Assembly: GCF_055900595.2 (NCBI RefSeq)
Contig: NZ_CM148325.1
Strand: one strand, 5' to 3'
DNA length: 64,000 bases
Shown here in pieces: positions 7,462-38,840 of this stretch (the stretch's first letter is position 1; each line of letters starts with the position of its first letter). Both the position numbers and the translations under genes were made by a program. The notes beneath the pieces are model-generated. The model made no database searches. It was not told the origin of the DNA and saw only the letters and a list, made by a program, of their open reading frames with translations.

Positions 7462-7612
7462 ACAAGTTCAGGATATATCTACAGCTCTGACATGATTCTC
7501 TGAGAGACATGACGGAGTGGTTAGACTGGCCCCCTGAATCTCCAGACAACCAATATCACTTAAATAAGTGATAGTCTTAATACTAGTTTTTAGACTAGTC
7601 ATTGGAGAACAG

Positions 7613-7978
7613 ATGATTGATGTCTTAGGGCCGGAGAAACGCAGACGGCGTACTACACAGGAAAAGATCGCTATCGTTCAGCAGAGCTTTGAACCGGGAA
7701 TGACGGTCTCCCTTGTTGCCCGGCAACATGGTGTGGCAGCCAGCCAGTTATTTCTCTGGCGTAAGCAATACCAGGAGGGAAGTCTTACTGCTGTGGCTGC
7801 CGGAGAACAGGTCGTTCCTGCCTCTGAACTTGCTGCCGCCATGAAGCAGATTAAAGAACTCCAGCGTCTGCTCGGCAAAAAAACGATGGAAAATGAACTC
7901 CTTAAAGAAGCCGTTGAATATGGGCGAGCAAAAAAGTGGATAGCGCACGCGCCCTTATTGCCCGGGGATGGGGAGTAA
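7613..7978 (+). CDS. insC: IS2 transposase OrfA
   Basis: [29 protein letters not shown].. matches IS2 InsC as recalled. Confidence 0.9.
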
Positions 7979-8841
7979 GCTTCGTCAGCCGTTGTCTCCG
8001 GGTGTCGCGTGCGCAGTTGCACGTCATTCTCAGACGAGCCGATGACTGGAAGGACGGCCGCCGCAGCCGTCACACGGATGATACGGATGTGCTTCGCCGT
8101 ATACACCATGTTATCGGAGAGCTACCCACATATGGTTATCGTCGGGTATGGGCGCTGCTTCGCAGACAAACAGAACTTGATGGTATGCCTGCGATCAATG
8201 CCAAACGTGTTTACCGGACCATGCGCCAGAATGCGCTGTTGCTTGAGCGAAAACCCGCTGTACCGCCATCGAAACGGGCACATACCGGCAGAGTGGCTGT
8301 GAAAGAAAGTAATCAGCGATGGTGCTCTGACGGGTTTGAGTTCCGCTGTGATAACGGAGAAAAACTGCGGGTCACGTTCGCGCTGGACTGCTGTGACCGT
8401 GAGGCACTGCACTGGGCGGTCACAACGGGTGGCTTCGACAGTGAAACAGTACAGGACGTCATGCTGGGAGCAGTGGAACGCCGCTTTGGCAGCGAGCTTC
8501 CGGCGTCTCCAGTGGAGTGGCTGACGGATAATGGTTCATGCTACCGGGCGAATGAAACACGTCAGTTCGCCAGGATGTTGGGACTTGAACCGAAGAACAC
8601 GGCAGTGCGGAGTCCGGAGAGTAACGGAATAGCAGAGAGCTTCGTGAAAACGATAAAGCGTGACTACATAAGTATCATGCCCAAACCAGACGGGTTAACG
8701 GCAGCAAAGAACCTTGCAGAGGCGTTCGAGCATTATAACGAATGGCATCCGCATAGTGCGCTGGGTTATCGCTCGCCACGGGAATATCTGCGGCAGTGGG
8801 CCAGTGATGGGTTAAGTGATAACAGGTGTCTGGAAATATAG
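7936..8841 (+). CDS. insD: IS2 transposase OrfB
   Basis: 301 aa, DDE integrase fold; matches IS2 InsD as recalled. Confidence 0.9.
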
Positions 8842-9267
8842 GGGCAAATCCATTGTCAGCACCAACAATGTGGGCTGACATGATAAAGCTGTCTAGGAAA
8901 TCGTTCGCCTCCTCAGCGGACAATCCAAATGGTGATTGTCTCTGTTAAACGTTTATTTTGAAGGTCGACTGAATAAGGTGATGACGCTGTAGAATTTTTC
9001 ACGTGCCACAGAATTTTGAACGCTTTCTCTTACAATATTTCAATGTTTCTATCAGTATTCGCCGGAAGAAGTCATCGACCAAATCATCCCAGTCGTCTCG
9101 CACCACTGACCATTCATGGTTGACATGTGGTGGAAATCCGCTTCTACAGTAACCATTTTTTATTCGCAAAACCGAACACGCCATACGGATAGCTGTTAAC
9201 TGGCATGCCGAGGCAGTCGTTATTTATATTTAGTTTTGTCAATAATCTTTATTTTTTGTAAAAGGCA

Positions 9268-9290
9268 AATATAAATTATTCTCATTATTG
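9268..9290 (+). promoter_or_regulatory. putative Fur box upstream of iha
   Basis: ATAAATTATTCTCATTATTG resembles Fur consensus GATAATGATAATCATTATC, about 60 bp upstream of iha ATG. Confidence 0.45.
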
Positions 9291-9340
9291 TTTGTATTTA
9301 TGTATTGTCTTGCCGGTTAACATGATCGGAGATTAGTAAT

Positions 9341-11431
9341 ATGCGAATAACCACTCTGGCTTCCGTAGTCATTCCCTGTCTCGGATTTTCAGCCAGCAGC
9401 ATAGCTGCTGCAGAGGATGTGATGATTGTCTCTGCATCCGGCTATGAGAAAAAGCTGACTAACGCAGCCGCCAGTGTTTCTGTGATTAGCCAGGAGGAAT
9501 TGCAGTCCAGCCAGTACCACGATCTGGCGGAGGCTCTGAGATCAGTAGAGGGTGTGGATGTTGAAAGTGGTACGGGTAAAACCGGTGGGCTGGAAATCAG
9601 CATCCGAGGAATGCCAGCCAGTTACACGCTGATACTGATTGATGGTGTTCGTCAGGGCGGAAGCAGTGACGTGACTCCCAACGGTTTTTCTGCCATGAAT
9701 ACCGGGTTCATGCCCCCTCTGGCCGCCATTGAGCGTATTGAGGTTATCAGGGGGCCGATGTCCACACTGTATGGCTCTGATGCGATGGGCGGTGTGGTGA
9801 ATATCATTACCAGAAAGAATGCAGACAAATGGCTCTCTTCCGTCAATGCAGGGCTGAATCTGCAGGAAAGCAACAAATGGGGTAACAGCAGCCAGTTTAA
9901 TTTCTGGAGCAGTGGTCCCCTTGTGGATGATTCTGTCAGCCTGCAGGTACGCGGTAGCACACAACAGCGTCAGGGCTCATCGGTCACATCACTGAGCGAT
10001 ACAGCAGCCACGCGTATTCCTTATCCCACGGAGTCACAGAATTATAATCTTGGTGCACGTCTTGACTGGAAGGCGTCGGCGCAGGATGTGCTCTGGTTTG
10101 ATATGGATACCACCCGGCAGCGTTATGATAACCGGGATGGGCAACTGGGGAGTCTGACGGGGGGATATGACCGGACCCTGCGCTATGAGCGAAACAAAAT
10201 TTCAGCTGGCTATGATCATACTTTCACCTTCGGAACATGGAAATCGTATCTGAACTGGAACGAGACAGAAAATAAAGGTCGTGAGCTCGTACGCAGTGTA
10301 CTGAAGCGCGACAAATGGGGGCTTGCCGGTCAGCCGCGGGAGCTTAAGGAATCGAACCTTATCCTGAATTCATTACTGCTTACCCCTCTGGGAGAATCTC
10401 ATCTGGTTACGGTGGGGGGCGAGTTTCAGAGCTCGTCCATGAAAGACGGAGTTGTCCTTGCCAGCACAGGTGAAACTTTCCGGCAGAAAAGCTGGTCGGT
10501 ATTTGCTGAGGATGAGTGGCATCTCACGGATGCACTTGCGCTGACTGTGGGCAGCCGCTATGAACATCATGAGCAATTCGGGGGACACTTCAGTCCGCGT
10601 GCATATCTGGTCTGGGATGTGGCAGATGCCTGGACGCTGAAAGGCGGTGTGACCACGGGATATAAGGCACCCAGAATGGGGCAGCTACATAAAGGGATTA
10701 GTGGTGTATCCGGGCAGGGAAAAACAAATCTACTTGGTAACCCCGACCTGAAGCCGGAAGAGAGCGTCAGTTATGAGGCTGGGGTGTATTACGATAACCC
10801 CGCCGGTCTGAATGCCAATGTCACAGGTTTTATGACTGACTTCTCCAACAAGATTGTCTCTTATTCCATAAATGATAACACCAATAGCTATGTAAACAGC
10901 GGAAAGGCCCGGTTGCATGGTGTGGAATTTGCCGGCACATTGCCGCTGTGGTCAGAGGATGTCACGCTGTCACTGAATTACACCTGGACCCGAAGTGAAC
11001 AACGTGATGGTGATAACAAAGGTGCGCCGCTGAGTTATACCCCTGAACACATGGTGAATGCGAAACTGAACTGGCAGATCACCGAAGAGGTGGCATCATG
11101 GCTGGGTGCCCGTTATCGCGGGAAAACACCACGTTTCACCCAGAATTATTCGTCACTGAGCGCTGTACAGAAGAAAGTGTATGATGAGAAAGGAGAATAC
11201 CTGAAAGCTTGGACGGTGGTGGATGCAGGTCTGTCGTGGAAGATGACGGATGCCCTGACGCTGAATGCTGCGGTGAATAACCTGCTCAACAAGGATTACA
11301 GTGACGTGAGCCTGTACAGTGCCGGTAAGAGTACGCTGTATGCCGGTGATTACTTCCAGACGGGATCATCAACAACAGGATATGTGATACCTGAGCGAAA
11401 TTACTGGATGTCGCTGAACTATCAGTTCTGA
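9341..11431 (+). CDS. iha: IrgA-homologue adhesin / TonB-dependent outer-membrane siderophore receptor Iha
   Basis: 696 aa, signal peptide, plug plus 22-strand barrel, C-terminal ..WMSLNYQF; N-terminus MRITTLASVVIPCLGFSASSIAAAEDVMIV matches Iha as recalled. Confidence 0.9.
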   Translation: MRITTLASVVIPCLGFSASSIAAAEDVMIVSASGYEKKLTNAAASVSVISQEELQSSQYHDLAEALRSVEGVDVESGTGKTGGLEISIRGMPASYTLILIDGVRQGGSSDVTPNGFSAMNTGFMPPLAAIERIEVIRGPMSTLYGSDAMGGVVNIITRKNADKWLSSVNAGLNLQESNKWGNSSQFNFWSSGPLVDDSVSLQVRGSTQQRQGSSVTSLSDTAATRIPYPTESQNYNLGARLDWKASAQDVLWFDMDTTRQRYDNRDGQLGSLTGGYDRTLRYERNKISAGYDHTFTFGTWKSYLNWNETENKGRELVRSVLKRDKWGLAGQPRELKESNLILNSLLLTPLGESHLVTVGGEFQSSSMKDGVVLASTGETFRQKSWSVFAEDEWHLTDALALTVGSRYEHHEQFGGHFSPRAYLVWDVADAWTLKGGVTTGYKAPRMGQLHKGISGVSGQGKTNLLGNPDLKPEESVSYEAGVYYDNPAGLNANVTGFMTDFSNKIVSYSINDNTNSYVNSGKARLHGVEFAGTLPLWSEDVTLSLNYTWTRSEQRDGDNKGAPLSYTPEHMVNAKLNWQITEEVASWLGARYRGKTPRFTQNYSSLSAVQKKVYDEKGEYLKAWTVVDAGLSWKMTDALTLNAAVNNLLNKDYSDVSLYSAGKSTLYAGDYFQTGSSTTGYVIPERNYWMSLNYQF

Positions 11432-11463
11432 TAATAACAAAACGCTATCACTGACGGTAGAAT

Positions 11464-11502
11464 ACGTTGCCACTGTAACTCCTGGCGGAACAGTGGCAAC
11501 GT
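11464..11502 (+). terminator. rho-independent-type hairpin downstream of iha
   Basis: 12-bp perfect stem ACGTTGCCACTG / CAGTGGCAACGT followed by TATT. Confidence 0.5.
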
Positions 11503-12214
11503 ATTAGGTTAAGTGCATTTCCGATCCGCTAATGAGATTTCGTTACCAACAACTAATATCGTCACAGGAAATGCACGGATTATTTTTAACTTATCATTTA
11601 CATACTTGTCCAGAGTGTAAGCGCACCGTGAAGGACGTGGGGTAAAAATTAGTGTACAGAGAGAGTGACGTTCCAGGGCAACAACTCTTTCATGCGGTTG
11701 GCAGGCCAGGTGTTGATTACACTGATCACGTGGCGTAGCCACGTTTCCGGCTCGATTCCGTTAAGTTTTGCAGCTACCGATCAGGCTGTACATCACTGCC
11801 GCACTATCGCTCGTCATCTCAAAGTCCGGTCTCGTCAGCAGGAAGGTATCATTCTCTCCCGCCATTTTTCCGGGGGCCCGGTCAGATAAGTCCCTTTGTC
11901 TATCGCTGACTCCTGGCTCATAACCCGGTTAGCAGAATGCAGGGTCACCACCTCGCCACGACCGAATCCGGATAAGTCAATTGCACCTTCTCAATCGCCA
12001 TTTTGTCACAATTAAGTTTGATAAATCATGTCACCTCTGCACTGAATCTGCTCCAGTGCCTCATTGGTCTCCGTCCACCCCTTTAAACTGCCGGATAAGA
12101 CTGCTGCACAGCGCCTTCCCCGGAATCAAATCACTTTCCCTGTCCGCCACAATCCGCTTCATGCCACCTCGTATTTTGTTTCAGAGACCGGAATCTGCCA
12201 GAAAGTGACTACGC

Positions 12215-12535
12215 GTGCACATATCGGTTTTCTGGGTTACATGCATCGTGTTATTTTCTGAAATGCAAAATAATAAAAAACAAGGACACATAATGAAGGA
12301 TGAAATACACAGTACCAGCATCAACCCGGATGTTGTTGAGCAGTTTCTGGCCCTTATGAACACACATTGTAAATCCTCAGAAGAGGCGCTCGCCATGCTG
12401 AGTACGCTTTGTTACAACCTGATGGTGACATGCGGTATCCATTCCATGGACAGCCAGATGCTCAATGGGCATGGGATATCCATGCAACTTCAGGGGATTG
12501 ATATTGCCGAAAGGCCAGGTAAGAATATTCACTAA
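12215..12535 (+). CDS. hypothetical small protein (likely start at internal Met, about 12293)
   Basis: First of four tandem same-strand small ORFs; no recognised motif. Confidence 0.35.
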   Translation: MHISVFWVTCIVLFSEMQNNKKQGHIMKDEIHSTSINPDVVEQFLALMNTHCKSSEEALAMLSTLCYNLMVTCGIHSMDSQMLNGHGISMQLQGIDIAERPGKNIH

Positions 12536-12810
12536 CCTGAACAGGGTCTGAAAACGCTGTCTTTTCAGGCCTCTGCAGGCAAAAACTGATGACAACAAAA
12601 TTTCTGCGTTTGTACCCCACCGATGAAAAAGACAAAAACTCACACCGGGCTTCTAGCCAGTAAAGATAAAACCCGACGTGTCAGCCTCTACGAAACGCCA
12701 ACGGCATGGTGTATCAGGGGGCAGGAGTGCTACAGCAAAAGTACAGGACGCCGCTGTGGCAGCCACGACAGTCTGAGCAGACTGCGCCTGGACAGCATTA
12801 AGCCTGTTGA

Positions 12811-13194
12811 ATGAGTGGTGGCACCATGAAAGATAACAGCACAACCGCCACCCCAGAAGCCTGGAAAATGCGTTTTCTGGCCAACGGGACATCCGGCACA
12901 TGGTTTTACACTGACGACATTACAGTCACTGACGCGTGGCTTCGCGCGCACCCGGATGATGTGGAGGTTATCCCTCTCTGCCGGATACCACCCCGTCAGC
13001 ATTCCCATGAACAACATATTGAAGAACTCCGTGCAGCCCTGGCCCGGATGCTGCATATGCATCATATGATGCTGGAAACCACGCATTACAGGGAAAACAT
13101 CACCGATGCCCGTTGTATCCGTGAAATGCATGAAGCTCCATTACAGGCGCTCAATATTCTGGCCAGATACCCGCATAAAAAGGACGAGGTGTGA
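12811..13194 (+). CDS. hypothetical protein
   Basis: Tandem small ORF, His-rich segment (HMHHMMLETTHY); no recognised domain. Confidence 0.35.
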   Translation: MSGGTMKDNSTTATPEAWKMRFLANGTSGTWFYTDDITVTDAWLRAHPDDVEVIPLCRIPPRQHSHEQHIEELRAALARMLHMHHMMLETTHYRENITDARCIREMHEAPLQALNILARYPHKKDEV

Positions 13195-13197
13195 CGC

Positions 13198-13413
13198 ATG
13201 TGGCTACTGATTTTCTGGCTTTCATCTCCCTTTAATGTCTCTTCCGGTGATGCCCGGCAGCCCACACTGGCGGTGCACAGCCAGGCATTTCATACCGAAC
13301 GGGCCTGTCGCGATGCATTGCACGCCATTAAAAAGGAGAATGTTGGCGAATTTTCTCTGCGGGGCGTTTGTGTTTCTGACGGAAATACGAAGGAGGAAGC
13401 TGAGAGCTCATGA
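13198..13413 (+). CDS. hypothetical small protein
   Basis: Starts 4 bp after previous stop; overlaps next ORF by 4 bp (operon-like coupling). Confidence 0.3.
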   Translation: MWLLIFWLSSPFNVSSGDARQPTLAVHSQAFHTERACRDALHAIKKENVGEFSLRGVCVSDGNTKEEAESS

Positions 13414-13682
13414 CGGATATTACTGACAGACATACACTTCGCCGTATGTCCTGGTCGGAACTCTTCACGGCAGCACAGGAAGCGGAATTTCAGCGTGATT
13501 ACGAGCGTGCCAGAATAGTGTGGTCATTCGCCTTACATGTTGCAACAACCACGATTAACAAAAATCTGGCCATAGCTCATATTCGACGCTGCAATACTTT
13601 GTTGCATAAATCAAAAACAGTACCCGGAAACAACACGGGGGGCCGGTCAGTGTGCCTGAGACCCCAACATCCCCGGAGATGA
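13410..13682 (+). CDS. hypothetical small regulator-like protein (possibly PerC-like)
   Basis: Pattern ..AEFQRDYERARIVW..IRRC.. is loosely reminiscent of PerC-family activators; from recall only. Confidence 0.3.
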   Translation: MTDITDRHTLRRMSWSELFTAAQEAEFQRDYERARIVWSFALHVATTTINKNLAIAHIRRCNTLLHKSKTVPGNNTGGRSVCLRPQHPRR

Positions 13683-13915
13683 CTGACATTCCGGACTGAC
13701 GCAGTTGCTGCATATCTGTGGCAATACGTTGTATCCAGCCAGACAGGTTATCCCGCGTAGTGACAATTAACCCGCTTTCCTGCACCAGCTTCAGCCGGGC
13801 CGTCGGGGATTTTACCAGCCGGAAATATCAGTAAAACAACATATCATTATGCCATGGTGTACGCGGCCAGTGTACGCTTACTTAAGGAATGAGGGATAAA
13901 TTGGATATTATTACT

Positions 13916-14188
13916 TCACTTTGCTTTTTTATGAGATTCATCACATAAGTGGGGTTTTACTGTTAAATAATCTGAATTTATTTGATATCCGTAAAGCAGA
14001 TGTCTCAGTTCGCTGTTTCCAACTTTTGTTATTCCTCTGGGGCGAATGCTGTTTCCGCTGGAATATTCACCTGGCACCAGTCCCAGAAAAGCCATGAGCT
14101 GTTCAGGATTGGAAAATCGCGAAAAATCACCCAGTTCAGCAACCAGGGTTATTGCGATTAGTTGACCAACACCTTTAAGAGCCTGCAA
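13916..14188 (-). pseudogene. IS110-family transposase, C-terminal fragment
   Basis: ..LVAELGDFSRFSNPEQLMAFLGLVPGEYSSG.. typical IS110/IS902 C-terminal region; N-terminal part missing. Confidence 0.55.
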
Positions 14189-14344
14189 CTGGCAGACCAG
14201 ATTGCACAGAGATCACTCAGGTAACAGGCGAGATATTTCCTGATCGAGTTGAAGTATGCGATCTTCAATCTGCTCCAGATTCTGACAATAATGTTGAAAG
14301 CAATCTGTTGAGATAGCAGACCAAATGATTGAGCGAGTGTTAGT

Positions 14345-14869
14345 GATGACAAACGTATCCAGGTACTTCTTATCTCATGGTGTTTTGGTGGATTTCTTGA
14401 GGCGGCAGCCGGATACGGTACAGCGGTAGCAATCCCCATTGGTATACTGATTGCTCTGGGCTTTAACCCACTAAAAGCAGCGATTGCATCACTGGTTGCT
14501 AATACAGTCCCTACAGCGTTTGGGGCAGTAGGTATACCTGTCTCTGTACTTGCTGAACAAGTTAATTTACCTGTAACCACACTCAGCGGGACAATTATTC
14601 TTCAACTGGCACTGTTCAACATTCTGCTTCCTTTCGTCATCGTCGCGATTATCGGTGGTGGTATGAAGACTATACGAGGCGTTGGACTAATTACCCTGAT
14701 GTGTGGTGTCAGTACATTAATTCCCCAGTATCTGGTGGCTGTTAATCTTGGCGCGGAACTCCCGGCTTTCGCGGGTAGTCTTGTCAGTCTGATAGTAATA
14801 GTCTTTATGGCGAAAAACCGTAAAGAAAAAACCGCCCCTGAATTGGGGATGCGGACGATTTCCTAGACT
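14345..14869 (+). pseudogene. L-lactate permease (LctP family) internal fragment
   Basis: Translated frame gives ..SWCFGGFLEAAAGYGTAVAIPIG..LVANTVPTAFGAVGIP.. as in LldP/GlcA; truncated on both sides by IS sequences. Confidence 0.55.
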
Positions 14870-14875
14870 GCTTTA

Positions 14876-15910
14876 TTATGCCAGCCCACATTGTTGGCGG
14901 TACATTTCAGGGCTGACTGCACCCAGCGATAATTTTATACGCCGCTCGTTATACCATCTGATGTAAGCATCTACATGCTGCATGAACTTTTCTGGCGTGA
15001 TGCCCGACCATTTACGCCCATAATACATTTCCGTTTTCAGTCTGCCGAAAAAACCTTCGCATGCGGCATTATCAGGTGAACATCCTTTACGGGACATTGA
15101 GCGAATAAGACCTGCTGCATTCACTCTTTCCAGCCAGCCTGGCCAGCGATAATGCCCACCTCTGTCACTGTGTATCACCGGTCGTTCGCCAGCATTTAAC
15201 GTTTCGACAGCGCTATCCAGCATAGTGTTGACCAGCTCAGCATCGGGGCGTGTACTGAGAGACCAGCTAATAACTTTTCCATCGAAGCAGTCCACCACCG
15301 GTGACAGCCAGACTTTACCTGCAGGGAGTTGGAACTCCGTGATATCTGTCAGCCATTTCTGATTAGGTTGCTACGCCTTAAAATCTCTGGCGATAAGGTT
15401 ATCCGGAGCCGGTCCGATTTCTCCGCAATATGAGCTGTAGCGACGACGACGGTTACGGCTGACGACAAGCTGTTCCTCCACCATAAGTCTGCGTACAACC
15501 TTTTCTGATAGCCGCCCCCCCTCATGCCTGAGCATCGCATGCAGGCGACGATAGCCATAACACTGGTAATTACTGTTAAATATATCTGTCAGCATCGTAC
15601 GTATCGTGGCGTATTTATCACCGGCTTTCAGTGCAGCCCGGTGATAAAAATAACTGCTACGGGTAAGGCCCAGAACATGAAGTAATTCTGTCAGGGGATA
15701 TGTTTGCCTCAGGGCATCAGCGATCTTTGTTTTTTCTCTGTTGTTCAGGTGACTGATACTGATGCCCGGGTCTTTTTTTATGATTTCCTCCGCTTTTTTC
15801 AGAATATCCAGCTCCATCTGCCGGCGGCGTATTTCCTGATTCAGTCGGGCGACTTCCTCCCGCAACGCATCGCGTTCTGCCTCCAGGGAAGGTTCGTTAT
15901 GTTTACGCAT
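14876..15910 (-). pseudogene. IS3-family transposase OrfB interrupted by in-frame stop
   Basis: Two track ORFs (15371-15910, 14876-15298) are in the same frame, separated by TAG (..DFKA*QPNQKWLTDITEF..); DDE motif region HSDRGGHY present. Confidence 0.6.
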
Positions 15911-15946
15911 AGTCTGGTAAGCACTGTTGCCGATAATTTCATCTTT

Positions 15947-16408
15947 CTATTTATACAATACCGCACGACTGACACCAATACGCCTGGCGATCTCACTGGC
16001 TGATACTTGTCGTGTACAGAGTGCCATGACAGCCTGACGTTTGACTTCTGGTTCAAAGGGCGCAACCGGGTTGGCCTTACTGGTAAATATACGTCGTCTG
16101 TCGGGATAAAGTTCATTAACCCAGCGAGCGAGTACATCAGTGCAGGGATAACCCAGGGCTCTGCTGGTAAACGCCAGGCAGCAGCCGTGGTTAAGATAAT
16201 GTTCAACGGCAACCTGTTTTTGCTCATCGGAGTAACGGTGCTTATGACGAATGGATTCTTTTGCGCCACCACCTGCTTCCCATGAGCGGATCCAACGCCG
16301 CAGATTTCTTTTCGAAGGGTAGCCCAGTTCGCGTACGACGGGAGCCAGCTTCTTACCATATTTGAAATAAAGCTCAATGGCGCGGATTTTTTCTTCTTCA
16401 GTAAACAT
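15947..16408 (-). CDS. IS3-family transposase OrfA (HTH)
   Basis: Two HTH-like segments; precedes OrfB in the same element. Confidence 0.6.
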   Translation of the reverse strand: MFTEEEKIRAIELYFKYGKKLAPVVRELGYPSKRNLRRWIRSWEAGGGAKESIRHKHRYSDEQKQVAVEHYLNHGCCLAFTSRALGYPCTDVLARWVNELYPDRRRIFTSKANPVAPFEPEVKRQAVMALCTRQVSASEIARRIGVSRAVLYK

Positions 16409-16823
16409 GTTTTATCTCCTGAGAGTCCAGGAAATCGTCCGCATCCCCCAACGAGCTGCTGTTTAAATTCGGGAGGATAATTAGGGCAGCCTTTTCGCCT
16501 GCCGGGAGTCACATTTTTCTGCATATCTGACACTTTGGTTCCCACTACTTATTTGGTGGACACCACTTTGTCTAATTCGTCAGATTCTGACCAGACGGTT
16601 CAGGCTGTACGCTTACAGTTGTTCAGGAGTAATAGTCCAAAGTATCGGGAATTTTCCAGACAATCCTGATAATACGCTTATGAACATTACAACACGCTCA
16701 TGCGGAACCTGGATGGGGGAAGGAACGGTGAAGCTGTTAGCGAATGACTGGCGTTTGTATAAACGCCGGTCATGATGAATGATATTTCAGAATATACCTC
16801 GGGCTAAAATACCGGGACAGAGA

Positions 16824-17247: not shown

Positions 17248-17290
17248 TGAGGTGTACTGGCAATAGCGGACACAACCATTTGTTCTTTTT

Positions 17291-19679: not shown

Positions 19680-19698
19680 CCCGTTGTAAAGTGAGGAT

Positions 19699-29773: not shown

Positions 29774-31051
29774 CTAGGTGCCGCTGCGCCACTGAATCAG
29801 GGCGGGCGGCATACTGAGATCGAATAAATCACGTCCCATTACGCGATTAAGAATACGTGCAGATCTCCATGCCATCAGGCTGAGCTGGGGTTCGGCGATG
29901 CCATGGGTTTGCATACTGGCGTTGACCACGAAGATGTTGTTCTCTTTCGGGCCACTCCATTCCAGAGTGAAGTCATCACGCACTTTAAAGGTGTTCTTAT
30001 CGTGCATGGTGATCAGGGGCATCAGTGAGGGAAGTATTTGTGGCAACGCAGAACGGTAACCTGTGGCGAAAATCACCACATCACTTTCCAGGCTCTCCCT
30101 GCCCTGATCCAGATGATGCTCCATCAGCAACTTCCAGCCAGGACCACTACTTTCCAGAGTTGTTACCGAGCGGCTGGGTAGCAGACGGATATTTCTTGGT
30201 TTTCTCAGAACTTCAAAACGGTGGTACAACTCACGATAAATGGTCAGTAAAGAATCGGCAGTGATGCCATCCGATGTCATTTTCTGCTCATCCAGTAACT
30301 GATGGCGAATATCTTCCTCCAGTCCGGAGAAGCCTGAAATATATTCAGGTGTAAAATACTCATCAGCAAAAGCAGCCTCATCCAGTGCGTTAAAATTATT
30401 ACGCCGGGAGACCCAGTTTATTTCCGCCGCTTCTCCCCATTCCCCGCGTAATGCATTAAGGAACAGGTCTGCACCACTCTGTCCTCCACCAACCACGGTT
30501 ATCCGTTTTCCACTAAGGTCCGGCCGACGAAGATTCATTTCACTGGCATGGAAACAGGATTGTGTCATATGCTTCACACAGGGTGGTAAATAAGGTTGTT
30601 TTCCTGTACCAAGGCAGATATTGCGGGCAAAATATTCTCCCTGGCTGGTTTGCACCAGAAACAATCGACGTTTTTTATCGAAATCAATGTTTTCAACGGT
30701 ATGACTGAAATACAGGTTATTCATATCTTCAGCAGCCCAGCGGAGGTAGTCAGAAAACTCTTCACGGGATACTGTACGTAGTCTGCTTGTAAGGAAGCGA
30801 TAGAACTTTTTGTGCTTCACCAGATAGTTAACAAAACTGTAGGGATTTGTAGGTGCAACAGCACTGACCAGATCTTTCAGAAAGACGGTCTGCATATGAC
30901 AATCCGGTACCAGCATACCCGGATGCCAGGAAAAATGAGGATGTTCATCAAAGAAGAGACAGTCCAGTTCTTCGATCTGATGTGACAACGCAGCAATGCT
31001 GAGATTAAATGGCCCTGTCCCTACACCAATAAAATCGACACTTTTTTTCAT
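29774..31051 (-). CDS. iucD: L-lysine N6-monooxygenase IucD
   Basis: FAD/NADPH motifs (GVGTGPFNLS, VVGGGQSGAD); overlaps iucC stop by 4 bp. Confidence 0.9.
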   Translation of the reverse strand: MKKSVDFIGVGTGPFNLSIAALSHQIEELDCLFFDEHPHFSWHPGMLVPDCHMQTVFLKDLVSAVAPTNPYSFVNYLVKHKKFYRFLTSRLRTVSREEFSDYLRWAAEDMNNLYFSHTVENIDFDKKRRLFLVQTSQGEYFARNICLGTGKQPYLPPCVKHMTQSCFHASEMNLRRPDLSGKRITVVGGGQSGADLFLNALRGEWGEAAEINWVSRRNNFNALDEAAFADEYFTPEYISGFSGLEEDIRHQLLDEQKMTSDGITADSLLTIYRELYHRFEVLRKPRNIRLLPSRSVTTLESSGPGWKLLMEHHLDQGRESLESDVVIFATGYRSALPQILPSLMPLITMHDKNTFKVRDDFTLEWSGPKENNIFVVNASMQTHGIAEPQLSLMAWRSARILNRVMGRDLFDLSMPPALIQWRSGT

Positions 31052-32790
31052 GATTCATATTCCTGAGTTACCAGCCACAGCGGATTTTGCAGATCCTCAA
31101 GGTAATTCGGCAGCATGCGGCTGCCGCCATCCAGATCAGGCCAGGTCAGTTTTACCGGGTTCAGCACCACGCGAATGATTTGTGGCCTGAAAAGTGAGAA
31201 AAGCGCAAAACGCTCTGACATTTGTGGATGTTTTTTCATGTAATCACTCAACACTGCTGCCAGCAGTTGATAAAATCGCCTTTCAGGTACGCCAAGACGA
31301 ACCATCAGTGGCGAAATAAAACGCAGTACTGTCACGAAGTGACCCGTCTGCAAATCATGGATTAAGTAGTCCGCACTCAGGCGGGATGTAACATCACGAA
31401 CCTCCTGAGGCAAAGAGTCCATTTCGGGGAACTCTTCTTTCACCAGTCGCATATCGCCCTGGAAGTCTTTCAGCAGAACACGCTGTGGAACCCCCTCTTT
31501 CATGGCGAGAGTTATATTTTGTCCATGTGCAATAAGCGCGACACCGTAGCGGCAAAGCAGGTGATACAGAGGAACCACGACCACCCGGAACAGTTGCGTA
31601 AGCCAGGTTTCAGCGTCCAGCCCGGAGCGGTCTATATATGCGCCTGCCAGCGGCTGATTGTTTTCGTCGCACTCCATCAGTGTTGCCATCAGAACCGGAC
31701 TTTCATCCGGTTTCAGCCAGCGGCACGGATTCTCCCGCCAGATAACACCAAGCATTTCCTGGTAGCGATAGGGAGCCCGGGCAAGCGCGGCATAGCCTTC
31801 ATGGGAGACATAGCCTGCAGCCGGTTCACCAAGTATCACTGCGCCGCTTTGCACTAGGGTGGCGTCGGTCGCAAAAACCTGTTGTAGCCAGCGTGAAGCC
31901 AGTGGTCCGGCAGCGATGTATCTGCCAGGGATCCCCCGGTAGCATGAGGTGTTGTAGATGGTCAGCGGCAGCTTGATATCCAGCCCGCCCCGGCGACTGG
32001 CGTTGGTCAGGGTACGCAGCGACTGCTGGGCGAGCCACTGGTCGCCAAACTCGCCGAGAGACACCATCCTGCCTTCGGCAAAATCAGCGATGAAGTCGGT
32101 AGCGATTTTTTGCTGCCACTGCCACGGATGTACCGGCAGCGGCAGCCAGTTGTGATCCAGTCCGTTTTCCTGCCAGACCTGACTGAAGCGTGTAAACTCC
32201 TGCGGATCCATTGCGGCAGTCAACAACTGCTGAATATCCAGATCGTTATCGCAGCGCCAGATCATATGTTCACGTTTTACCGCCAGCCAGTGCAGTCTGA
32301 AGGTGTTGGTATACTCTGGCGCATATCGTTCCAGCGCCTCTTTGCCCCAGCCACGGCGACCTTTATTAAAAACGAATTTAGGATGACCGCTCAGCAAGCA
32401 TTGCAGACGATCGGCATCAAGATTAATCAGGTCACTGGCACTCAGTCCGCGACGGGCCTTCAGCAGTTGCAGGTCGCCCAGTAGCGTGGCATACAAATCC
32501 TGCATATGCTCTGCAACAGTGGCATCACTCATTGACAGCACCGGCTTTAGCTGCATCAGCAGCGTCTGCGCCAGTACTGGTTCGTCCGTGCAGCGCAACG
32601 TTTGGGCATCAATCCACAGCCAGCCCCAGATACCACGTTCAGCGATGAAGCGCCATTGTGCTCCCGGCAGGTTAATGCAGTAGTGGTCATCGCCCTGAGA
32701 TTCCGCGTGGAAAACCTGCTCATACTCCATCTCAGACAACATTTTTGCCACCAGCCGACGGTTAACAAAATCCCAGTCCTTGTGATTCAT
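31048..32790 (-). CDS. iucC: aerobactin synthetase IucC (NRPS-independent siderophore synthetase)
   Basis: 580 aa IucA/IucC-family protein in iucABCD order. Confidence 0.9.
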   Translation of the reverse strand: MNHKDWDFVNRRLVAKMLSEMEYEQVFHAESQGDDHYCINLPGAQWRFIAERGIWGWLWIDAQTLRCTDEPVLAQTLLMQLKPVLSMSDATVAEHMQDLYATLLGDLQLLKARRGLSASDLINLDADRLQCLLSGHPKFVFNKGRRGWGKEALERYAPEYTNTFRLHWLAVKREHMIWRCDNDLDIQQLLTAAMDPQEFTRFSQVWQENGLDHNWLPLPVHPWQWQQKIATDFIADFAEGRMVSLGEFGDQWLAQQSLRTLTNASRRGGLDIKLPLTIYNTSCYRGIPGRYIAAGPLASRWLQQVFATDATLVQSGAVILGEPAAGYVSHEGYAALARAPYRYQEMLGVIWRENPCRWLKPDESPVLMATLMECDENNQPLAGAYIDRSGLDAETWLTQLFRVVVVPLYHLLCRYGVALIAHGQNITLAMKEGVPQRVLLKDFQGDMRLVKEEFPEMDSLPQEVRDVTSRLSADYLIHDLQTGHFVTVLRFISPLMVRLGVPERRFYQLLAAVLSDYMKKHPQMSERFALFSLFRPQIIRVVLNPVKLTWPDLDGGSRMLPNYLEDLQNPLWLVTQEYES

Positions 32791-33737
32791 TACAGACCGA
32801 CCTCCGTGAAGAAGTGATGACGATCCGCCATCACCATGCGCGAGCGCTTATGTGGGAAGTCGAACTCTTTAATTGTCCGGTATCCCGCAGGCTCAAGATG
32901 GCGGAACAGGCGCAGGTTATCGGTGCGTGGCTCCAGTACTGTGCGCTGCGTACGGGGCTCATCCAGCAGCAGGTAATGTGTCAGCCCGCGCAGCCAGCTT
33001 TGCACATAGTGGGCCCCGCGCCATTGCTGTTCACCAACCAGCAGATGCAGGCCACGGTCAAAGGGCTGCCACGAATAGTGACGACCAATGCGGTCTTCCG
33101 CCGCCCAGTAGATTTCGAAATAGCTGAATGGCCGATCGTCGAAGCACCCAATCAGCGGGAATGCATGTTTACCGGTGAGCTGGCGCTCCAGATAGGCGGT
33201 CTGTACCTCCAGTGAGCCACTTTGCTCCCAGAAATACTCAACGCGCGGATCATTCATCCAGCGGGTGAAACGTTCTGCATCAGAAACGGGATCGGCAATG
33301 CGGAAACTCAGCATCCTGCGAATACGTGGATCGTAACGGCGGTAAACCTCACCCTGTGGACGGGGTGGGCGCTGCGGGAAATAAATCTCACGCTCTGCAT
33401 CAAAAACCATTTCACCGGAGGCCCGGTTTGCCGGTGAACTCAACCATAACGGTAACTGCCAGAAGGCAGTACGATGGATAATGTCGCTTTTTACCTGCCC
33501 AAAAAGCGTCAGCGCCTGTGGCTCCTCACGCCATTCGGCCCAGGGGAGAGCCACTGCTGACAGTTGTGGAGCGGCGATAAATATCTGATCCAGCGCATCG
33601 CACAGCCACCCTGTCGGCAGCTCCCCGGGACAGTGCAACACCGCGCTATTGTCCAGTCCCCAGCCAAGATTCAGGGGCTTGTCGAGTTTTTCACAGCGCA
33701 GTCCATATCTGCTGTGAATAATGTTTGCCTCAGACAT
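32790..33737 (-). CDS. iucB: N6-hydroxylysine acetyltransferase IucB
   Basis: 315 aa, acetyltransferase in conserved operon position between iucA and iucC. Confidence 0.9.
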   Translation of the reverse strand: MSEANIIHSRYGLRCEKLDKPLNLGWGLDNSAVLHCPGELPTGWLCDALDQIFIAAPQLSAVALPWAEWREEPQALTLFGQVKSDIIHRTAFWQLPLWLSSPANRASGEMVFDAEREIYFPQRPPRPQGEVYRRYDPRIRRMLSFRIADPVSDAERFTRWMNDPRVEYFWEQSGSLEVQTAYLERQLTGKHAFPLIGCFDDRPFSYFEIYWAAEDRIGRHYSWQPFDRGLHLLVGEQQWRGAHYVQSWLRGLTHYLLLDEPRTQRTVLEPRTDNLRLFRHLEPAGYRTIKEFDFPHKRSRMVMADRHHFFTEVGL

Positions 33738-35462
33738 TCAGACCTCCTGAGCCTGCAGCGGGTTAGCGAAATCGAAATAGATCACCGAAGGGTCAACAAT
33801 GGTGTTCTCGTTATGATCGTTCAGATAACAGAAAAAGTTACCTTTTACGTTCCAGTACGGACTTTCCAGCACGTAGTTGAGACAGGTTTTATGAGTCACC
33901 TGATCACGCACTTCAGCCAGCGATGCTCGTACACGAGCCATCAGATTCGATTCGCTGTCCAGCCCGGCAGCCCCCAGCGCAGCGGTCACAGCAAAAGTGG
34001 AGTTAACCAGCAGGTAATAAGGGAAATAGCGCAGCAACTGCTCATGGGTGAAAATATTTTCCGCCTGCGCCTCGCCAATAGAATCGAGCCAGTCTGTCGC
34101 GTGAGGCATAAAAGCGCTGCCCTGACAGTCACGGTAAATAAATCCGACCGGCAGATCCCCAAGCATCTGGACAAGAATATTTTGCTGATGCGCCAGCAGC
34201 ACCAGGCCGTAATCCGCTTCAGCCGTAAACAGCGGCTTTAGCACTTGCTGACAGTATGCATCGACCCATGCATGGGCGGCCTGTTGCACAGTGATACCGA
34301 GGCGATCGCTCAGGCGTTTTACCGCCGAAACCAGCAGCGAATCACCGCCATCAGGTGCGGCCTGAGTCAGGGAGACCAGTACGTTAGTCTGGCTTTTCGG
34401 CTGATCCACCAGCAGATTTTCACGCAGGGCAAACAGACTTTCCTGCATGATGTTGCCGTTAAGATCGCGCAGCCCGGCCCAGCCATCCTCCTGCATTACC
34501 CGGAAAGTCGGGAAGCGGACCTGTAGCATCTGCCAGCCGTCGGTTTGAGCCAGGCGTGCCAGGCGCATCCCACGCTTCACTTCTTTCACGGACAGAGTAC
34601 GGATGGAGTTGGTCAGCCGTACGCTCAGGGAGAACTTGATCATATCGCGGCTGGTGGCACAGTAGAGGGAACGGGAAGAGGTGGTCGGCAGCCACGACGT
34701 GCCGGCCTCACCTAAGTCTTTAATCAGCCCTTTAGCAACAAGTGCCTGGCACCACCCCTGCTGCAAAAGATATTCCCCCTGCCACGGGTGCAACGGGAAC
34801 AGCCATTGGTTGTCACTTAATTCGTTGAGTAACTGAGGCGCATTCTCTGCGGCAAATCGCGTCAGCCGCTGTTGAAGGTTGAGATGCAAACTTTCACCGG
34901 CGATTTGCGTTTTATCCACCGAAAACCACCGCAGTGGGAAGTGGGGTGCCATATCAGGCAGGTAGCGTTCAGCCTCCCGCCGGTTAAACGGTTCATGAGA
35001 CTTAGGCGCAGGGTGGAAAGCGTGTCCTGTCAGCAGCGCCTGCTCAGCCTCGCCAAAATTCAACGCTTTTTCACGCAGAGCGGCCCAGTCATGACGGGCA
35101 TCAATTGCCTGTTGCGTATGGACATGGCTTTCCAGCACGCGCTGGTGGAAAGTTTCGCAGAGGGGAACGGGCAGAAACAGTTGATGGCGTAGCTTATCAA
35201 TAATAAGCCGGGAGAGAGTGGTAAAGTCGACAGGATAACTGCCTGATGCCGTGACCAGACGTGCAGGAAATGCAAAGCGGTGATGCTGGGTTGGGGAGAA
35301 ATAAGCCACTCTGAAATGGAGCGATTTCTGCTCATCCAGCGGGATGAGCAATTCGTCTGGCGGGTATTCTGTCAGTTTCCAGTCTGTGGTTTCACGAATC
35401 AGTGCATTCAGGAAGCACTGCGCAGCCACATCTGTGGCTGGTTTTTCAGAGGGCAGGGTCAT
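33738..35462 (-). CDS. iucA: aerobactin synthetase IucA
   Basis: Matches IucA from MTLPSEKPATDVAAQCF.. onward; the 21 codons upstream in the track ORF lie in the AT-rich promoter/Fur-box region. Confidence 0.9.
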   Translation of the reverse strand: MTLPSEKPATDVAAQCFLNALIRETTDWKLTEYPPDELLIPLDEQKSLHFRVAYFSPTQHHRFAFPARLVTASGSYPVDFTTLSRLIIDKLRHQLFLPVPLCETFHQRVLESHVHTQQAIDARHDWAALREKALNFGEAEQALLTGHAFHPAPKSHEPFNRREAERYLPDMAPHFPLRWFSVDKTQIAGESLHLNLQQRLTRFAAENAPQLLNELSDNQWLFPLHPWQGEYLLQQGWCQALVAKGLIKDLGEAGTSWLPTTSSRSLYCATSRDMIKFSLSVRLTNSIRTLSVKEVKRGMRLARLAQTDGWQMLQVRFPTFRVMQEDGWAGLRDLNGNIMQESLFALRENLLVDQPKSQTNVLVSLTQAAPDGGDSLLVSAVKRLSDRLGITVQQAAHAWVDAYCQQVLKPLFTAEADYGLVLLAHQQNILVQMLGDLPVGFIYRDCQGSAFMPHATDWLDSIGEAQAENIFTHEQLLRYFPYYLLVNSTFAVTAALGAAGLDSESNLMARVRASLAEVRDQVTHKTCLNYVLESPYWNVKGNFFCYLNDHNENTIVDPSVIYFDFANPLQAQEV

Positions 35463-35502
35463 AGTCAAACAGCTCCCACACAGCAAAATAATAACAATTA
35501 TG

Positions 35503-35535
35503 TCAATAATGATTCTCATTATCAATAATAAATGT
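35503..35535. promoter_or_regulatory. Fur box / iron-regulated promoter of iucABCD-iutA (divergent from shiF)
   Basis: CAATAATGATTCTCATTATCAATAATAA closely matches Fur consensus, about 45-70 bp upstream of iucA start. Confidence 0.65.
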
Positions 35536-35597
35536 TATTGTCAGATAAATTAATTTTACAAATAAACACAATTAATACATGGAGTTGAAACATTATA

Positions 35598-36791
35598 ATG
35601 TCACCAGGGATCGAAGATACGCCCCAAAAACCACTGTCCTGCTGGCCACTTGCGTTCAGTGCCGGGCTTCTCGGTATCGGACAGAACGGTCTGCTGGTTG
35701 TGCTCCCTGTTCTGGTCATACAGACAAATCTGAGTCTGTCTGTATGGGCTGCCCTGCTGATGCTTGGCTCAATGCTGTTTCTGCCATCGTCCCCGTGCTG
35801 GGGAAAGCAAATTTCCCGTACTGGCAGTAAACCTGTGGTGTTGTGGGCTCTGGGAGGATATGGCATAAGCTTTACCCTGCTAGGGCTGGGAAGCGTGCTG
35901 ATGGCTACCAGCGCCATAACAACAGCGGTGGGACTGGGAATATTAATCATCGCCCGGATCGCCTACGGGCTGACCGTGTCGGCAATGGTGCCAGCCTGTC
36001 AGGTCTGGGCATTGCAGAGAGCTGGAGAAGGGAATCGCATGGCCGCTCTGGCAACCATCAGCTCCGGCCTGAGTTGCGGCAGGCTATTCGGGCCGCTGTG
36101 CGCGGCAGCAATGCTGGCCATTCATCCTCTGGCGCCACTGGGGCTGCTGATGGCAGCCCCAGTGCTGGCGCTGCTGATGCTGCTGCGGTTGCCCGGCACA
36201 CCACCACAGCCCACACCGGAGTGCAAGAGCGTCAGTCTGAAGCGGGATTGTCTGCCTTATCTGCTTTGCGCAATATTACTGGCTGCGGCGGTGAGCATGA
36301 TGCAGCTTGGACTTTCGCCTGCCCTTACTCGCCAGTTCGCCACGGATACCACCGCCATTAGCCAACAGGTGGCCTGGCTGTTGGGTCTGTCCGCAGTAGC
36401 TGCGCTTATCGCGCAGTTCGGGGTACTCCGTCCGCAGCGCCTGACTCCGGTGGCCCTGCTCCTGAGTGCCGGAGTGTTGATGAGTGGTGGTCTGGCTATC
36501 ATGCTCTCCGAACAGCTATGGTTGTTTTACCCGGGCTGTGCAGTGCTGTCATTTGGAGCAGCTCTGGCAACACCCGCTTATCAACTTCTACTGAATGATA
36601 AGCTGGCTGATGGCGCAGGCGCGGGCTGGCTCGCTACCAGTCACACACTTGGCTATGGACTGTGCGCTTTGCTGGTGCCGCTGGTATCGAAAACAGGTGT
36701 CGCAATCGCGCTGATTATGGCAGCATTATTTGCAACTATATTATTTACCATTGTGTCTGTATTTATCTGGCATTACCGTACTATCAAATAA
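35598..36791 (+). CDS. shiF: MFS transporter ShiF
   Basis: 397 aa 12-TM MFS protein divergently transcribed from iucA, as in SHI-2-type aerobactin islands. Confidence 0.8.
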   Translation: MSPGIEDTPQKPLSCWPLAFSAGLLGIGQNGLLVVLPVLVIQTNLSLSVWAALLMLGSMLFLPSSPCWGKQISRTGSKPVVLWALGGYGISFTLLGLGSVLMATSAITTAVGLGILIIARIAYGLTVSAMVPACQVWALQRAGEGNRMAALATISSGLSCGRLFGPLCAAAMLAIHPLAPLGLLMAAPVLALLMLLRLPGTPPQPTPECKSVSLKRDCLPYLLCAILLAAAVSMMQLGLSPALTRQFATDTTAISQQVAWLLGLSAVAALIAQFGVLRPQRLTPVALLLSAGVLMSGGLAIMLSEQLWLFYPGCAVLSFGAALATPAYQLLLNDKLADGAGAGWLATSHTLGYGLCALLVPLVSKTGVAIALIMAALFATILFTIVSVFIWHYRTIK

Positions 36792-36903
36792 AGATATGAT
36801 CATCACCTTACTGGAGTAAATCAGAGGATATGAGAGAGGACCTGCGTCTGATGAAAACATGTCAGGCAGTGTTCTGGCTTGCTGCCCCCGCCTGGATTTG
36901 CCC

Positions 36904-37809
36904 CTATATTTCCAGACATCTGTTATCACTTAACCCATTACAGGCCCGCTGCCGCAGATATTCCCGTGGCGAGCGATAACCCAACGCACTATGCGGATGC
37001 CATTCGTTATAATGCTCGAACGCCTCTGCAAGGTTCTTTGCTGCCGTTAACCCGTCTGGTTTGGGTATGATACTTATGTAGTCACGCTTTATCGTTTTCA
37101 CGAAGCTCTCTGCTATGCCGTTACTCTCCGGACTCCGCACCGCCGTGTTTTTCGGTTCAAGCCCCAACATCCGGGCAAACTGCCGTGTTTCATTAGCCCG
37201 GTAGCATGAACCATTATCCGTCAGCCACTCTACTGGAGACGCCGGAAGCTCGTTGCCGAAGCGGCGTTCCACCGCTCCCAGCATGACGTCCTGTACTGTT
37301 TCACTGTTGAAGCCGCCCGTAGTGACCGCCCAGTGCAGTGCCTCACGGTCACAGCAGTCCAGCGCGAACGTGACCCGCAGTTTTTCTCCGTTATCACAGC
37401 GGAACTCGAACCCGTCAGAGCACCATCGCTGATTACTTTCTTTCACAGCCACTCTGCCGGTATGTGCCCGTTTCGATGGCGGTACAGCGGTTTTTCGCTC
37501 AAGCAACAGCGCATTCTGGCGCATGATCCGGTAAATACGTTTGGCATTGATCGCAGGCATACCATCAAGTTCTGTTTGTCTGCGAAGCAGCGCCCATACC
37601 CGACGATAACCATATGTGGGTAGCTCTCCGATAACATGGTGTATACGGCGAAGCACATCCGTATCATCCGTGTGACGGCTGCGGCGGCCGTCCTTCCAGT
37701 CATCGGCTCGTCTGAGAATGACGTGCAACTGCGCACGCGACACCCGGAGACAACGGCTGACGAAGCTTACTCCCCATCCCCGGGCAATAAGGGCGCGTGC
37801 GCTATCCAC
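36904..37809 (-). CDS. insD: IS2 transposase OrfB
   Basis: 301 aa, near-identical to copy 1 InsD. Confidence 0.9.
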
Positions 37810-38132
37810 TTTTTTGCTCGCCCATATTCAACGGCTTCTTTAAGGAGTTCATTTTCCATCGTTTTTTTGCCGAGCAGACGCTGGAGTTCTTTAATCTGCT
37901 TCATGGCGGCAGCAAGTTCAGAGGCAGGAACGACCTGTTCTCCGGCAGCCACAGCAGTAAGACTTCCCTCCTGGTATTGCTTACGCCAGAGAAATAACTG
38001 GCTGGCTGCCACACCATGTTGCCGGGCAACAAGGGAGACCGTCATTCCCGGTTCAAAGCTCTGCTGAACGATAGCGATCTTTTCCTGTGTAGTACGCCGT
38101 CTGCGTTTCTCCGGCCCTAAGACATCAATCAT
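37767..38132 (-). CDS. insC: IS2 transposase OrfA
   Basis: Identical to copy 1 InsC in the track translation. Confidence 0.9.
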
Positions 38133-38840
38133 CTGTTCTCCAATGACTAGTCTAAAAACTAGTATTAAGACTATCACTTATTTAAGTGATATTGGTTGTC
38201 TGGAGATTCAGGGGGCCAGTCTAACGGTTTACGTTACGCCCTTAGCTACCTGGCTAAACAGGATCAGAAAGAACACGGTATTATTCTGATGCGTAGCAGA
38301 CTTCCCGAAAAAAGTAACCGCGGCCGACCACGACACAACTGAATTACAGCTGTATTAGAATTAAGTTTCCGTAAGTTGTTGGGAGGTGCTTGAGTTAATA
38401 GGCAGCAGAGGGGGCGCTGTAATCAGTGTAGGGGACCCGAATTTCTGCTGTGGTGCTTCAGTGGTTCGGATACAGGTAACGAATATGGTTCATAAATCTG
38501 ACAGTGATGAATTAGCAGCACTGAGGGAAGACATCACTTGAAGCTTATGGGATTGAATGGCGACGTAAACCGCAGAGTCCTGTGCAGTGCGTTTCCGTAT
38601 TATCCACGGATGAGAAAGTTGCGTTATTTCGTCGGTTGTTTCGTGGGCGTAGTGATGTATGGGGCCTTCGATGGGAAAGTAAAACTAGCGGAAAATAAAA
38701 GTACTCGCCTGCCTACGGACCTTTTTACTCAGGGTATTTTTGTTTTCCATAACGTTGCGTATTAACATGAAGGAGAACGAGGGGGATTAGGTAATCTCTT
38801 TCCATGAAAATACGCAAACGTTCATCACCGAAGTGAAAAA

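Follow-up and report, generated by a model that had tools for sequence, protein, structure and literature searches.

Inverted IS2 copies around the iha-sat-aerobactin segment of a pheV-type pathogenicity island appear to be rearrangement joints that allow its inversion

The stretch of DNA analyzed here (64,000 nucleotides of contig NZ_CM148325.1, NCBI RefSeq assembly GCF_055900595.2; in the following "the window") carries a uropathogenic Escherichia coli pathogenicity island of the PAI-CFT073-pheV (PAI I CFT073) or GI-pheV family of sequence types ST131, ST73 and ST1193 (PMC7545054; PMC11488385). Two copies of the insertion sequence (IS) IS2, designated IS2-A and IS2-B, lie in this island in inverted orientation and enclose about 28 kb with the genes iha, sat, iutA-iucDCBA and shiF (Table 1). 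A preliminary description of the window had placed the copies at 7522-8852 and 36893-38223 and had listed these genes between them. Reading of the ends confirms the coordinates and finds both elements intact, and open reading frames (ORFs) together with the RefSeq annotation of near-identical genomes confirm the gene content. The layout given here is based on the ORFs of the window and on the RefSeq annotation of FDAARGOS_448 and ABU 83972, which are nearly identical to the window and collinear with it. The DNA flanking the elements is referred to as LA (left of IS2-A), RA (right of IS2-A), LB (left of IS2-B) and RB (right of IS2-B).

A repeat search returned one long inverted pair in the window, 7520-8852 and 36893-38225 (1333 nt, 98% complementary, spacing 28,040 nt). 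Both copies display the features of IS2: a length of about 1331 bp, a left inverted repeat (IRL) beginning TAGACTGGCCCC..., a right inverted repeat (IRR) ending ...GGGGCAAATCCA, and overlapping insC and insD frames. These frames are open in both copies, with the A6G frameshift motif at IS position 409 and an InsD protein of 301 amino acids. The two bases by which the repeat exceeds each element are a GT beside both IRLs, which is native flank DNA outside the element. The shared GT was considered as a minicircle spacer carried over with the element, and this was rejected because both GT are native flank; functional IS2 circles have a 1-bp spacer that is not transferred (PMC3299598).

On the window strand, IS2-A is flanked by gtggt and ttgtc, and IS2-B by ccgcc and acggt. 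Written in the orientation of the element, the IRL-side 5-mers are GTGGT (IS2-A) and ACCGT (IS2-B), and the IRR-side 5-mers are TTGTC (IS2-A) and GGCGG (IS2-B). There is no 5-bp direct repeat around IS2-A or IS2-B, neither in the present pairing nor in the partner-exchanged pairing of a flipped segment. The preliminary description had also seen no direct repeat, and re-reading gave the same letters. Simple IS2 insertions do duplicate 5 bp, as is seen for K-12 IS2A (ATTAC/ATTAC) and for the third IS2 of strain DETEC-P666 (CGTAT/CGTAT), and the missing duplications at IS2-A and IS2-B are hence informative. They concern the history of the two copies, not their identity as IS2.

The native continuations of the four flanks can be read in other genomes. 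Among 5,426 complete genomes, the LA-IS2-RA junction is present in 548 and the LB-IS2-RB junction in 244. In an island of Shiga toxin-producing E. coli (STEC), the nan block corresponding to LA has the sequence ...GACGGAGTGGT and leads into subAB; its homology to the window breaks off between 7521 and 7522, and the DNA that follows LA there is unrelated to RA. Weak resemblance of RA to this DNA (TTGTC...) was rejected, because alignment gave no homology. The iha upstream region (RA) is preceded by ...GTCCTTAGTA in O157:H7 and O178:H19, where homology starts exactly at the base matching 8853. For RB, a full-length yfjJ/Gp2-like gene in strains B2C and E2 reads ...GCGGTAG/ACGGTTTACG, which identifies the AC at 38224-38225 as native sequence of this gene. 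The window lacks the 5' part of this gene, which IS2-B cuts. YagK/YfjJ genes of SCU-172 were examined as this missing half, which would imply insertion of the unit in the gene, and were rejected as a different paralogue with no match. The DNA 3' of shiF (LB), finally, continues for at least 862 bp into shiE in SCU-172 (31 genomes alike) and in FDAARGOS_944. The shiE ORF shows an IS4/Tn5-type DNA-binding domain, and in the 31 genomes of SCU-172 type the LB-side IS2 lies 862 bp farther out.

An empty site of IS2-A, with LA and RA contiguous, was found in none of the 5,426 genomes (chimeric query LA300+RA300, no match covering at least 80%). Judged by these comparisons, each IS2 copy joins blocks of different ancestry, and neither is a simple insertion. 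Such a position at the joint between blocks of different origin explains why the target duplications are missing.

The preliminary description had favored assembly by independent insertions or by recombination. Independent insertion would mean two simple IS2 insertions in a contiguous island whose duplications were lost by point mutation, or an atypical insertion without duplication. The copies differ at 25 sites, which would be compatible with this, and 349 genomes that are otherwise collinear with the window but lack IS2-B (including FDAARGOS_448 and some named ST131 records) look at first like an empty site. However, the direct LB-RB joint of these genomes reads CCCGCC-T-GGTTTACG (the joint CCCGCCTGGTTTACG), while the filled site of the window, CCCGCC[IS2-B]ACGGTTTACG, has kept the native AC. 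Deletion of 1332 bp from the filled sequence, between the GG of the terminal TGG of IS2 and the GG of ACGG, yields this joint. It is not ancestral, because AC is native to the truncated gene and because LB natively runs into shiE and not into RB; FDAARGOS_448 was rejected as the ancestral empty site of IS2-B on the same two grounds. With the two sides of each copy stemming from different native contexts and no empty site for IS2-A, independent insertion is very improbable, and the apparent empty site of IS2-B is better read as a deletion scar.

Comparison of the two copies suggests exchange between them. IS2-A and IS2-B differ at 25 nucleotides, all within IS positions 688-1305, while positions 1-687 are identical; the chance of such clustering, if differences were evenly spread, is about 1e-8. 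InsC is identical in IS2-A, IS2-B and K-12, and InsD differs at 9 residues between the two copies. From K-12 IS2A, IS2-A differs at 57 and IS2-B at 51 nucleotides (95.7% and 96.2% identity). As all 25 differences are confined to one part of the element, both copies appear to be mosaics of at least two IS2 lineages, and the 687-nt identity points to exchange between the copies. The preliminary description had concluded from the InsD differences that the copies are not a recent duplicate; this holds for the IRR-proximal half only, as the first 687 nt are identical.

The same description had also seen no pattern consistent with simple inversion and had proposed to look for an inverted module in related strains. 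The 5-bp flanks are indeed uninformative in this respect, but the comparison revealed an inversion isomer in clone D i2 and i14, so that inversion between the copies has occurred. Chimeric queries composed of the flanks place LA next to the reverse complement of LB in 109 genomes, and in two of these, clone D i2 and i14, exactly one IS2 stands between them (span 2000 + 1331 bp). The reciprocal junction, in which a single IS2 separates RB from the reverse complement of RA, is present in clone D i2 and i14 and in 36 other genomes, 38 in all. The order in clone D i14 is tRNA-Phe, int, pap', ..., yfjJ', IS2, iha, ..., sat, iutA, iuc, shiF, IS2, esterase, nanR. Hence the entire 28-kb segment is reversed between unchanged outer blocks, with base-exact junctions and 99.8-99.96% identity to the window.

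The IS2 copies of clone D carry a record of the event. Where RB and RA meet, the copy is of a-type (the bases of IS2-A) at all 25 sites; where LA and LB meet, it is a-type at 19 sites (688-1107) and b-type (the bases of IS2-B) at 6 sites (1158-1305), and is thus a hybrid of both copies. This hybrid is the outcome of a crossover located between positions 1107 and 1158, and in the other copy positions 688-1107 were converted to a-type. The mapped crossover falls in the diverged half and not in the identical 687 nt. Because clone D lacks a source of b-type bases at 688-1107, the change went from the window type to the clone D type. An IS2-B with b-type bases throughout is found in the window, in ABU 83972 and in many other genomes. 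Across the arrangements examined (window, FDAARGOS_448, clone D, DETEC-P666), an a-type IRR half is always found with RA and a b-type half with LB, which fits ancient IS2-RA and IS2-LB junctions with exchange nearer the IRL. The elements expected of an inversion system are therefore at hand: inverted repeats of 1331 nt at 98% identity, both orientations among relatives, and recombinant repeats in clone D.

Clone D, ABU 83972, Nissle, CFT073 and ATCC 25922 all belong to ST73 (PMC7067039), and within this sequence type three configurations are present: that of the window, ABU 83972 and Nissle, that of clone D, and that of CFT073 and ATCC 25922. The 36 genomes outside clone D with RB-IS2-RA carry a diverged sat-iuc-shiF allele, which in the two examined (DETEC-P666 and SCU-172) shows 99.5% identity with CFT073 and 97.4% with the window. 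Because the flipped junction is also found on this diverged allele, the orientation polymorphism appears to be old as well.

The third configuration, a direct LA-LB joint without IS2, is found in about 106 genomes, including CFT073 and ATCC 25922. LB is fused there to the reverse complement of LA (...CCCCCG[CC]ACTCCGTCA). Removal of 1334 bp from a clone-D-type LA-T-IS2-GG-LB, at a GG/CC microhomology, gives exactly this joint, in which the LB end is the derived one and the native T7521 is missing. This joint might be taken as ancestral, with shiF beside the nan block, a later atypical IS2 insertion (2-bp GG duplication and an extra T) and a subsequent inversion to the window type. Its frequency would be in keeping with this, and the LA-IS2-LB junction of clone D could be read as the insertion product. 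However, shiE is the continuation of LB in FDAARGOS_944 and in genomes of SCU-172 type, which makes the LB end of the CFT073 joint itself a derived breakpoint. In the STEC island, T7521 belongs to the native nan block, and a 2-bp duplication is unlike IS2, for which the controls show 5 bp. In DETEC-P666, which has a CFT073-like allele, LB still borders on an IS2 IRR remnant of 205 bp whose sequence matches IS2-B exactly. The intergenic region across the CFT073 joint was also considered as a native bidirectional terminator and rejected, since it folds no better than shuffled sequence (z = -0.06) and shows no terminator-like site. An ancestral LA-LB joint is thus unlikely.

The LB-RB and LA-LB joints both appear, from their sequence, to be scars of IS2 loss and not ancestral empty sites. 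In both, about one IS length is deleted, a 2-bp microhomology lies near the ends of the element, and the IS-bearing state comes first. Loss of ISApl1 from Tn6330 and related excisions of IS30 and IS629 likewise involve microhomologies of 2-4 bp and deletions of about the length of the element (bioRxiv 10.1101/2023.06.07.543989).

Some observations concern this joint and the CFT073-type genomes. One assembly of Nissle 1917 (NZ_CP007799.1, 3377074-3379070) shows the LA-LB joint of CFT073, while CP022686.1 and CP058217.1, also assemblies of Nissle, contain IS2-B and are arranged like the window; the difference probably stems from reference-guided assembly and not from real heterogeneity. Strain G8 (NZ_CP060057.1, 824098-827354) carries an insert of about 1257 bp, annotated as IS3-family transposase, within the LA-LB region. 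The insert is missing from G1/2 and G6/7 (assumed from their names to be siblings) and looks like a fresh insertion beside the scar. The single IS2 of CFT073, next to iha (L008, 17184-18513), is a third, frameshifted variant of 1330 bp, with 36-50 differences from IS2-A, IS2-B and K-12 IS2A and a different IRL flank (TGAGAATATCAC).

Based on this dataset, we propose that the two IS2 copies very probably remain from earlier rearrangements associated with IS2 in an island of PAI-CFT073-pheV type, and that they now serve as inverted repeats through which homologous recombination flips the 28-kb segment. The proposal draws on exact breakpoints at the four flanks, the flipped isomer, the hybrid IS2 with its conversion tract, and the IS2-less derivatives at microhomologies. 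Recombination between the 1.3-kb inverted copies (687 nt of which match perfectly), presumably RecA-dependent, would reverse the orientation of iha-sat-iutA-iucDCBA-shiF with respect to both neighbors, the nan cluster and the side with pap, int and tRNA-Phe. As a possible order of events, IS2 copies may first have come to adjoin the iha upstream region and to lie near shiE. IS2-adjacent deletions, or recombination with other IS2 copies, may then have replaced the outer flanks, and an 862-bp deletion of shiE next to the IRR would have created the present end of LB. Subsequently, sequence exchange between the inverted copies would have been accompanied by at least one flip of the segment in ST73, and probably by earlier ones too. 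Finally, one or the other copy would have been lost by microhomology deletion in large clades, and such a loss would lock the orientation.

Several points weigh against this proposal. The flipped order in the 36 genomes outside clone D resides on the diverged allele (97.4%), so that either orientation may be the original one. Recombination is seen only through its products in different genomes. Common ancestry of the two copies, followed by replacement of the IRR half in one of them, could account for the 687-nt identity in place of conversion between these two copies. CFT073 and the window are more than one inversion apart: the iha unit has the same orientation in both, while in CFT073 the sat-iuc-shiF unit has changed orientation and has been relocated beside the nan block. 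Single-step paths from the window to CFT073 were considered, and neither one inversion nor one replicative intramolecular transposition reproduces the block order of CFT073. The deep history of the island is thus only partly reconstructed.

One may further speculate that the IS2 pair is a recurrent flip-flop, which changes the orientation of the block with respect to replication and neighboring promoters and thereby affects expression, that IS2 loss fixes this orientation, and that orientation and locking are selected in extraintestinal pathogenic E. coli (ExPEC) and not neutral. We regard this extension as rather unlikely.

The arrangement also resembles a composite transposon, in which the IS2 pair would have mobilized the 28-kb segment as one unit into the island, the target duplication having decayed since. 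Two intact IS2 copies with complete reading frames do bracket a virulence cargo, and the aerobactin genes of pColV-K30 are classically flanked by inverted IS1. The 5-mers around the whole unit differ, however (GTGGT versus ACGGT), and LA and RB are not neighbors in their native contexts. Only the IRR of IS2 acts as donor end, and derivatives with two left ends form no minicircles (PMC3299598); both outer termini of the unit are IRLs, which would be unable to act as donor according to that work. The plasmid comparison that the preliminary description had suggested returned no plasmid record with the LB-IS2 junction, and hence none that holds the unit with both arms; the LB-side IS2 farther out in the 31 genomes of SCU-172 type also argues against a fixed unit. 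In the chromosomes examined, the IS2-flank junctions lie in the same island family, in searches that covered recombinations of the four known flanks and not relocation elsewhere. We give mobilization as one unit almost no credence; the preliminary description, which had called the structure composite-transposon-like but had preferred recombination, besides independent insertions, to a single transposition event, is borne out as to recombination. One 36-kb IncFIB record from a blood isolate (CP088636.1, pC17EC0063-4; whole record, L012) carries only window positions 123-18602, i.e. the nan block, IS2-A, iha and IS debris to IS30. Its alignment has 145 gap openings, which indicates a poor assembly, and its location on a plasmid is doubtful.

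The features of the window are collected in Table 1. Between iha and sat lie four small hypothetical genes and IS debris. In the right block, the window is collinear with FDAARGOS_448, ABU 83972 and clone D to 51739.

Table 1. Coordinates of the IS2 copies, the invertible segment and neighboring features in the window.
Feature	Position	Strand	Remark
Outer left block N/LA	1-7521		sialic-acid (nan-like) cluster; stops exactly at IS2-A IRL
nanR	5641-6375	-	end of nan-like cluster
Sialate O-acetylesterase gene	6472-7461	+	
IS2-A	7522-8852	+	1331 bp; IRL at 7522 = TAGACTGG, IRR ending ...CAAATCCA at 8852
IRL-proximal 687 nt of IS2-A	7522-8208	+	identical to 37537-38223 of IS2-B; longest perfect homology between the copies
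insC of IS2-A	7613-7978	+	
insD of IS2-A	7936-8841	+	
IRR-proximal part of IS2-A	8209-8852	+	bears 25 a-type variant sites
Invertible segment	8853-36892		28,040 bp; RA, iha, hypothetical genes, IS debris, sat, iutA, iucDCBA, shiF, LB
RA	8853-9340		upstream region of iha
iha	9341-11431	+	siderophore receptor/adhesin; from annotation and ORFs
sat	22649-26536	-	serine protease autotransporter toxin; from annotation and ORFs
iutA	27491-29692	-	
iucD	29774-31051	-	
iucC	31048-32790	-	
iucB	32790-33737	-	
iucA	33738-35462	-	
shiF-like major facilitator superfamily (MFS) gene	35598-36791	+	3' flank LB up to 36892, cut off at IS2-B IRR
IS2-B	36893-38223	-	1331 bp; IRR at 36893, IRL at 38223
insD of IS2-B	36904-37809	-	
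insC of IS2-B	37767-38132	-	
RB	38224-38342	+	last 38 codons (38226-38342) of inovirus-Gp2/YagK/YfjJ-family gene, truncated exactly at IS2-B IRL
Outer right block p	38343-51792		archaeo-eukaryotic primase (AEP) pseudogene fragment, DUF417/TetR/DUF1471 genes, IS debris, pap remnants, P4-type integrase, tRNA-Phe

Further observations concern the content of the island. The AEP ("TOTE") pseudogene fragment lies at about 38483-38693, just outside IS2-B. A second inverted pair in the window consists of two IS1 copies (45687-46458 and 47710-48481; 772 nt, 100% identical, 1251 nt apart) with papX between them. The pap operon remnant comprises papI, papB, a frameshifted papA and papX, and the order IS1-papX-IS1 is also present in FDAARGOS_448, ABU 83972 and clone D. 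An IS66-family element of 2.7 kb (18603-21300, + strand; ORFs of 225 and 523 amino acids) with a flanking duplication ACAAGTGT(G) lies inside an IS30 copy; it is missing from FDAARGOS_448, ABU 83972 and clone D, and would therefore be a recent, strain-specific insertion. The iucD gene is a 425-amino-acid ORF in the window and is marked as frameshifted by PGAP in FDAARGOS_448, ABU 83972 and clone D, while the CFT073 allele has 445 amino acids and a different C-terminal tail. Collinearity with the pheV island ends within tRNA-Phe (51739), and neither yqgA nor speC follows in the window. The remainder, 51739-64000, resembles a second CP4-like island with integrase, GTPase, DUF4942 and DUF932 genes. 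Any complete RefSeq E. coli genome covers 44000-64000 to at most 77%; the tandem-island arrangement, or the strain, is thus not in that collection.

The genes iha and sat and the aerobactin genes are standard virulence markers of ExPEC. The island is usually drawn as a fixed map, yet in ST73 alone its central 28 kb is arranged in three or more ways. Four junctions reveal the configuration and may hence serve as a cheap structural marker for lineage tracing and as an assembly check, as the one Nissle assembly with the CFT073 joint illustrates. Caution is warranted with the two joints that resemble empty IS2 sites, as they are in all likelihood deletion scars, and presence or absence of IS2 alone would give the wrong direction of gain and loss. 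The hybrid IS2 of clone D is a clear natural record of a crossover with a conversion tract.

The mechanisms involved, IS-mediated inversion and microhomology-mediated IS loss, are well known; a published description of the inversion of this island was not found in the literature searched. Inversion between inverted IS copies is known for IS1, IS3, IS5, IS26 and rrn-type repeats in enterobacterial chromosomes. The present case shares with these the 1.3-kb inverted repeats, both orientations among close relatives, the reciprocal exchange of flanks and a hybrid repeat at the crossover, and differs in that a defined 28-kb virulence block inside the pheV pathogenicity island is concerned. On pColV-K30, inverted IS1 copies surround the aerobactin operon in a composite-transposon-like manner. 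There, as here, aerobactin genes lie between inverted copies of one insertion sequence and transposition as a unit is unproven. Here, however, the element is IS2 with its asymmetric ends, the location is a chromosomal island, the cargo also includes iha and sat, and the plasmid-type shiF is only 90-95% identical. IS2 of E. coli K-12, a member of the IS3 family, agrees with the window copies in length (1331 bp), IRL and IRR, insC and insD and the A6G frameshift site; the window copies differ from it by the lack of a 5-bp duplication and by their mosaic sequences. With the loss of ISApl1 from Tn6330 (mcr-1), IS30 and IS629, the IS2-less joints share the deletion of about one element (1332 and 1334 bp versus 1331), the 2-bp microhomology and the frequency of one IS-less product. 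The element is IS2, however, and its flanks were never duplicates, so that the scars would be chimeric joints that mimic empty sites. PAI-CFT073-pheV and GI-pheV, finally, agree with the window in the P pilus remnants, iha, sat, aerobactin, the nan/Ag43 side and the P4-type integrase next to tRNA-Phe, whereas in CFT073 itself sat-iuc-shiF is reversed and directly adjoins the nan block, and only one IS2, diverged and frameshifted, lies beside iha.

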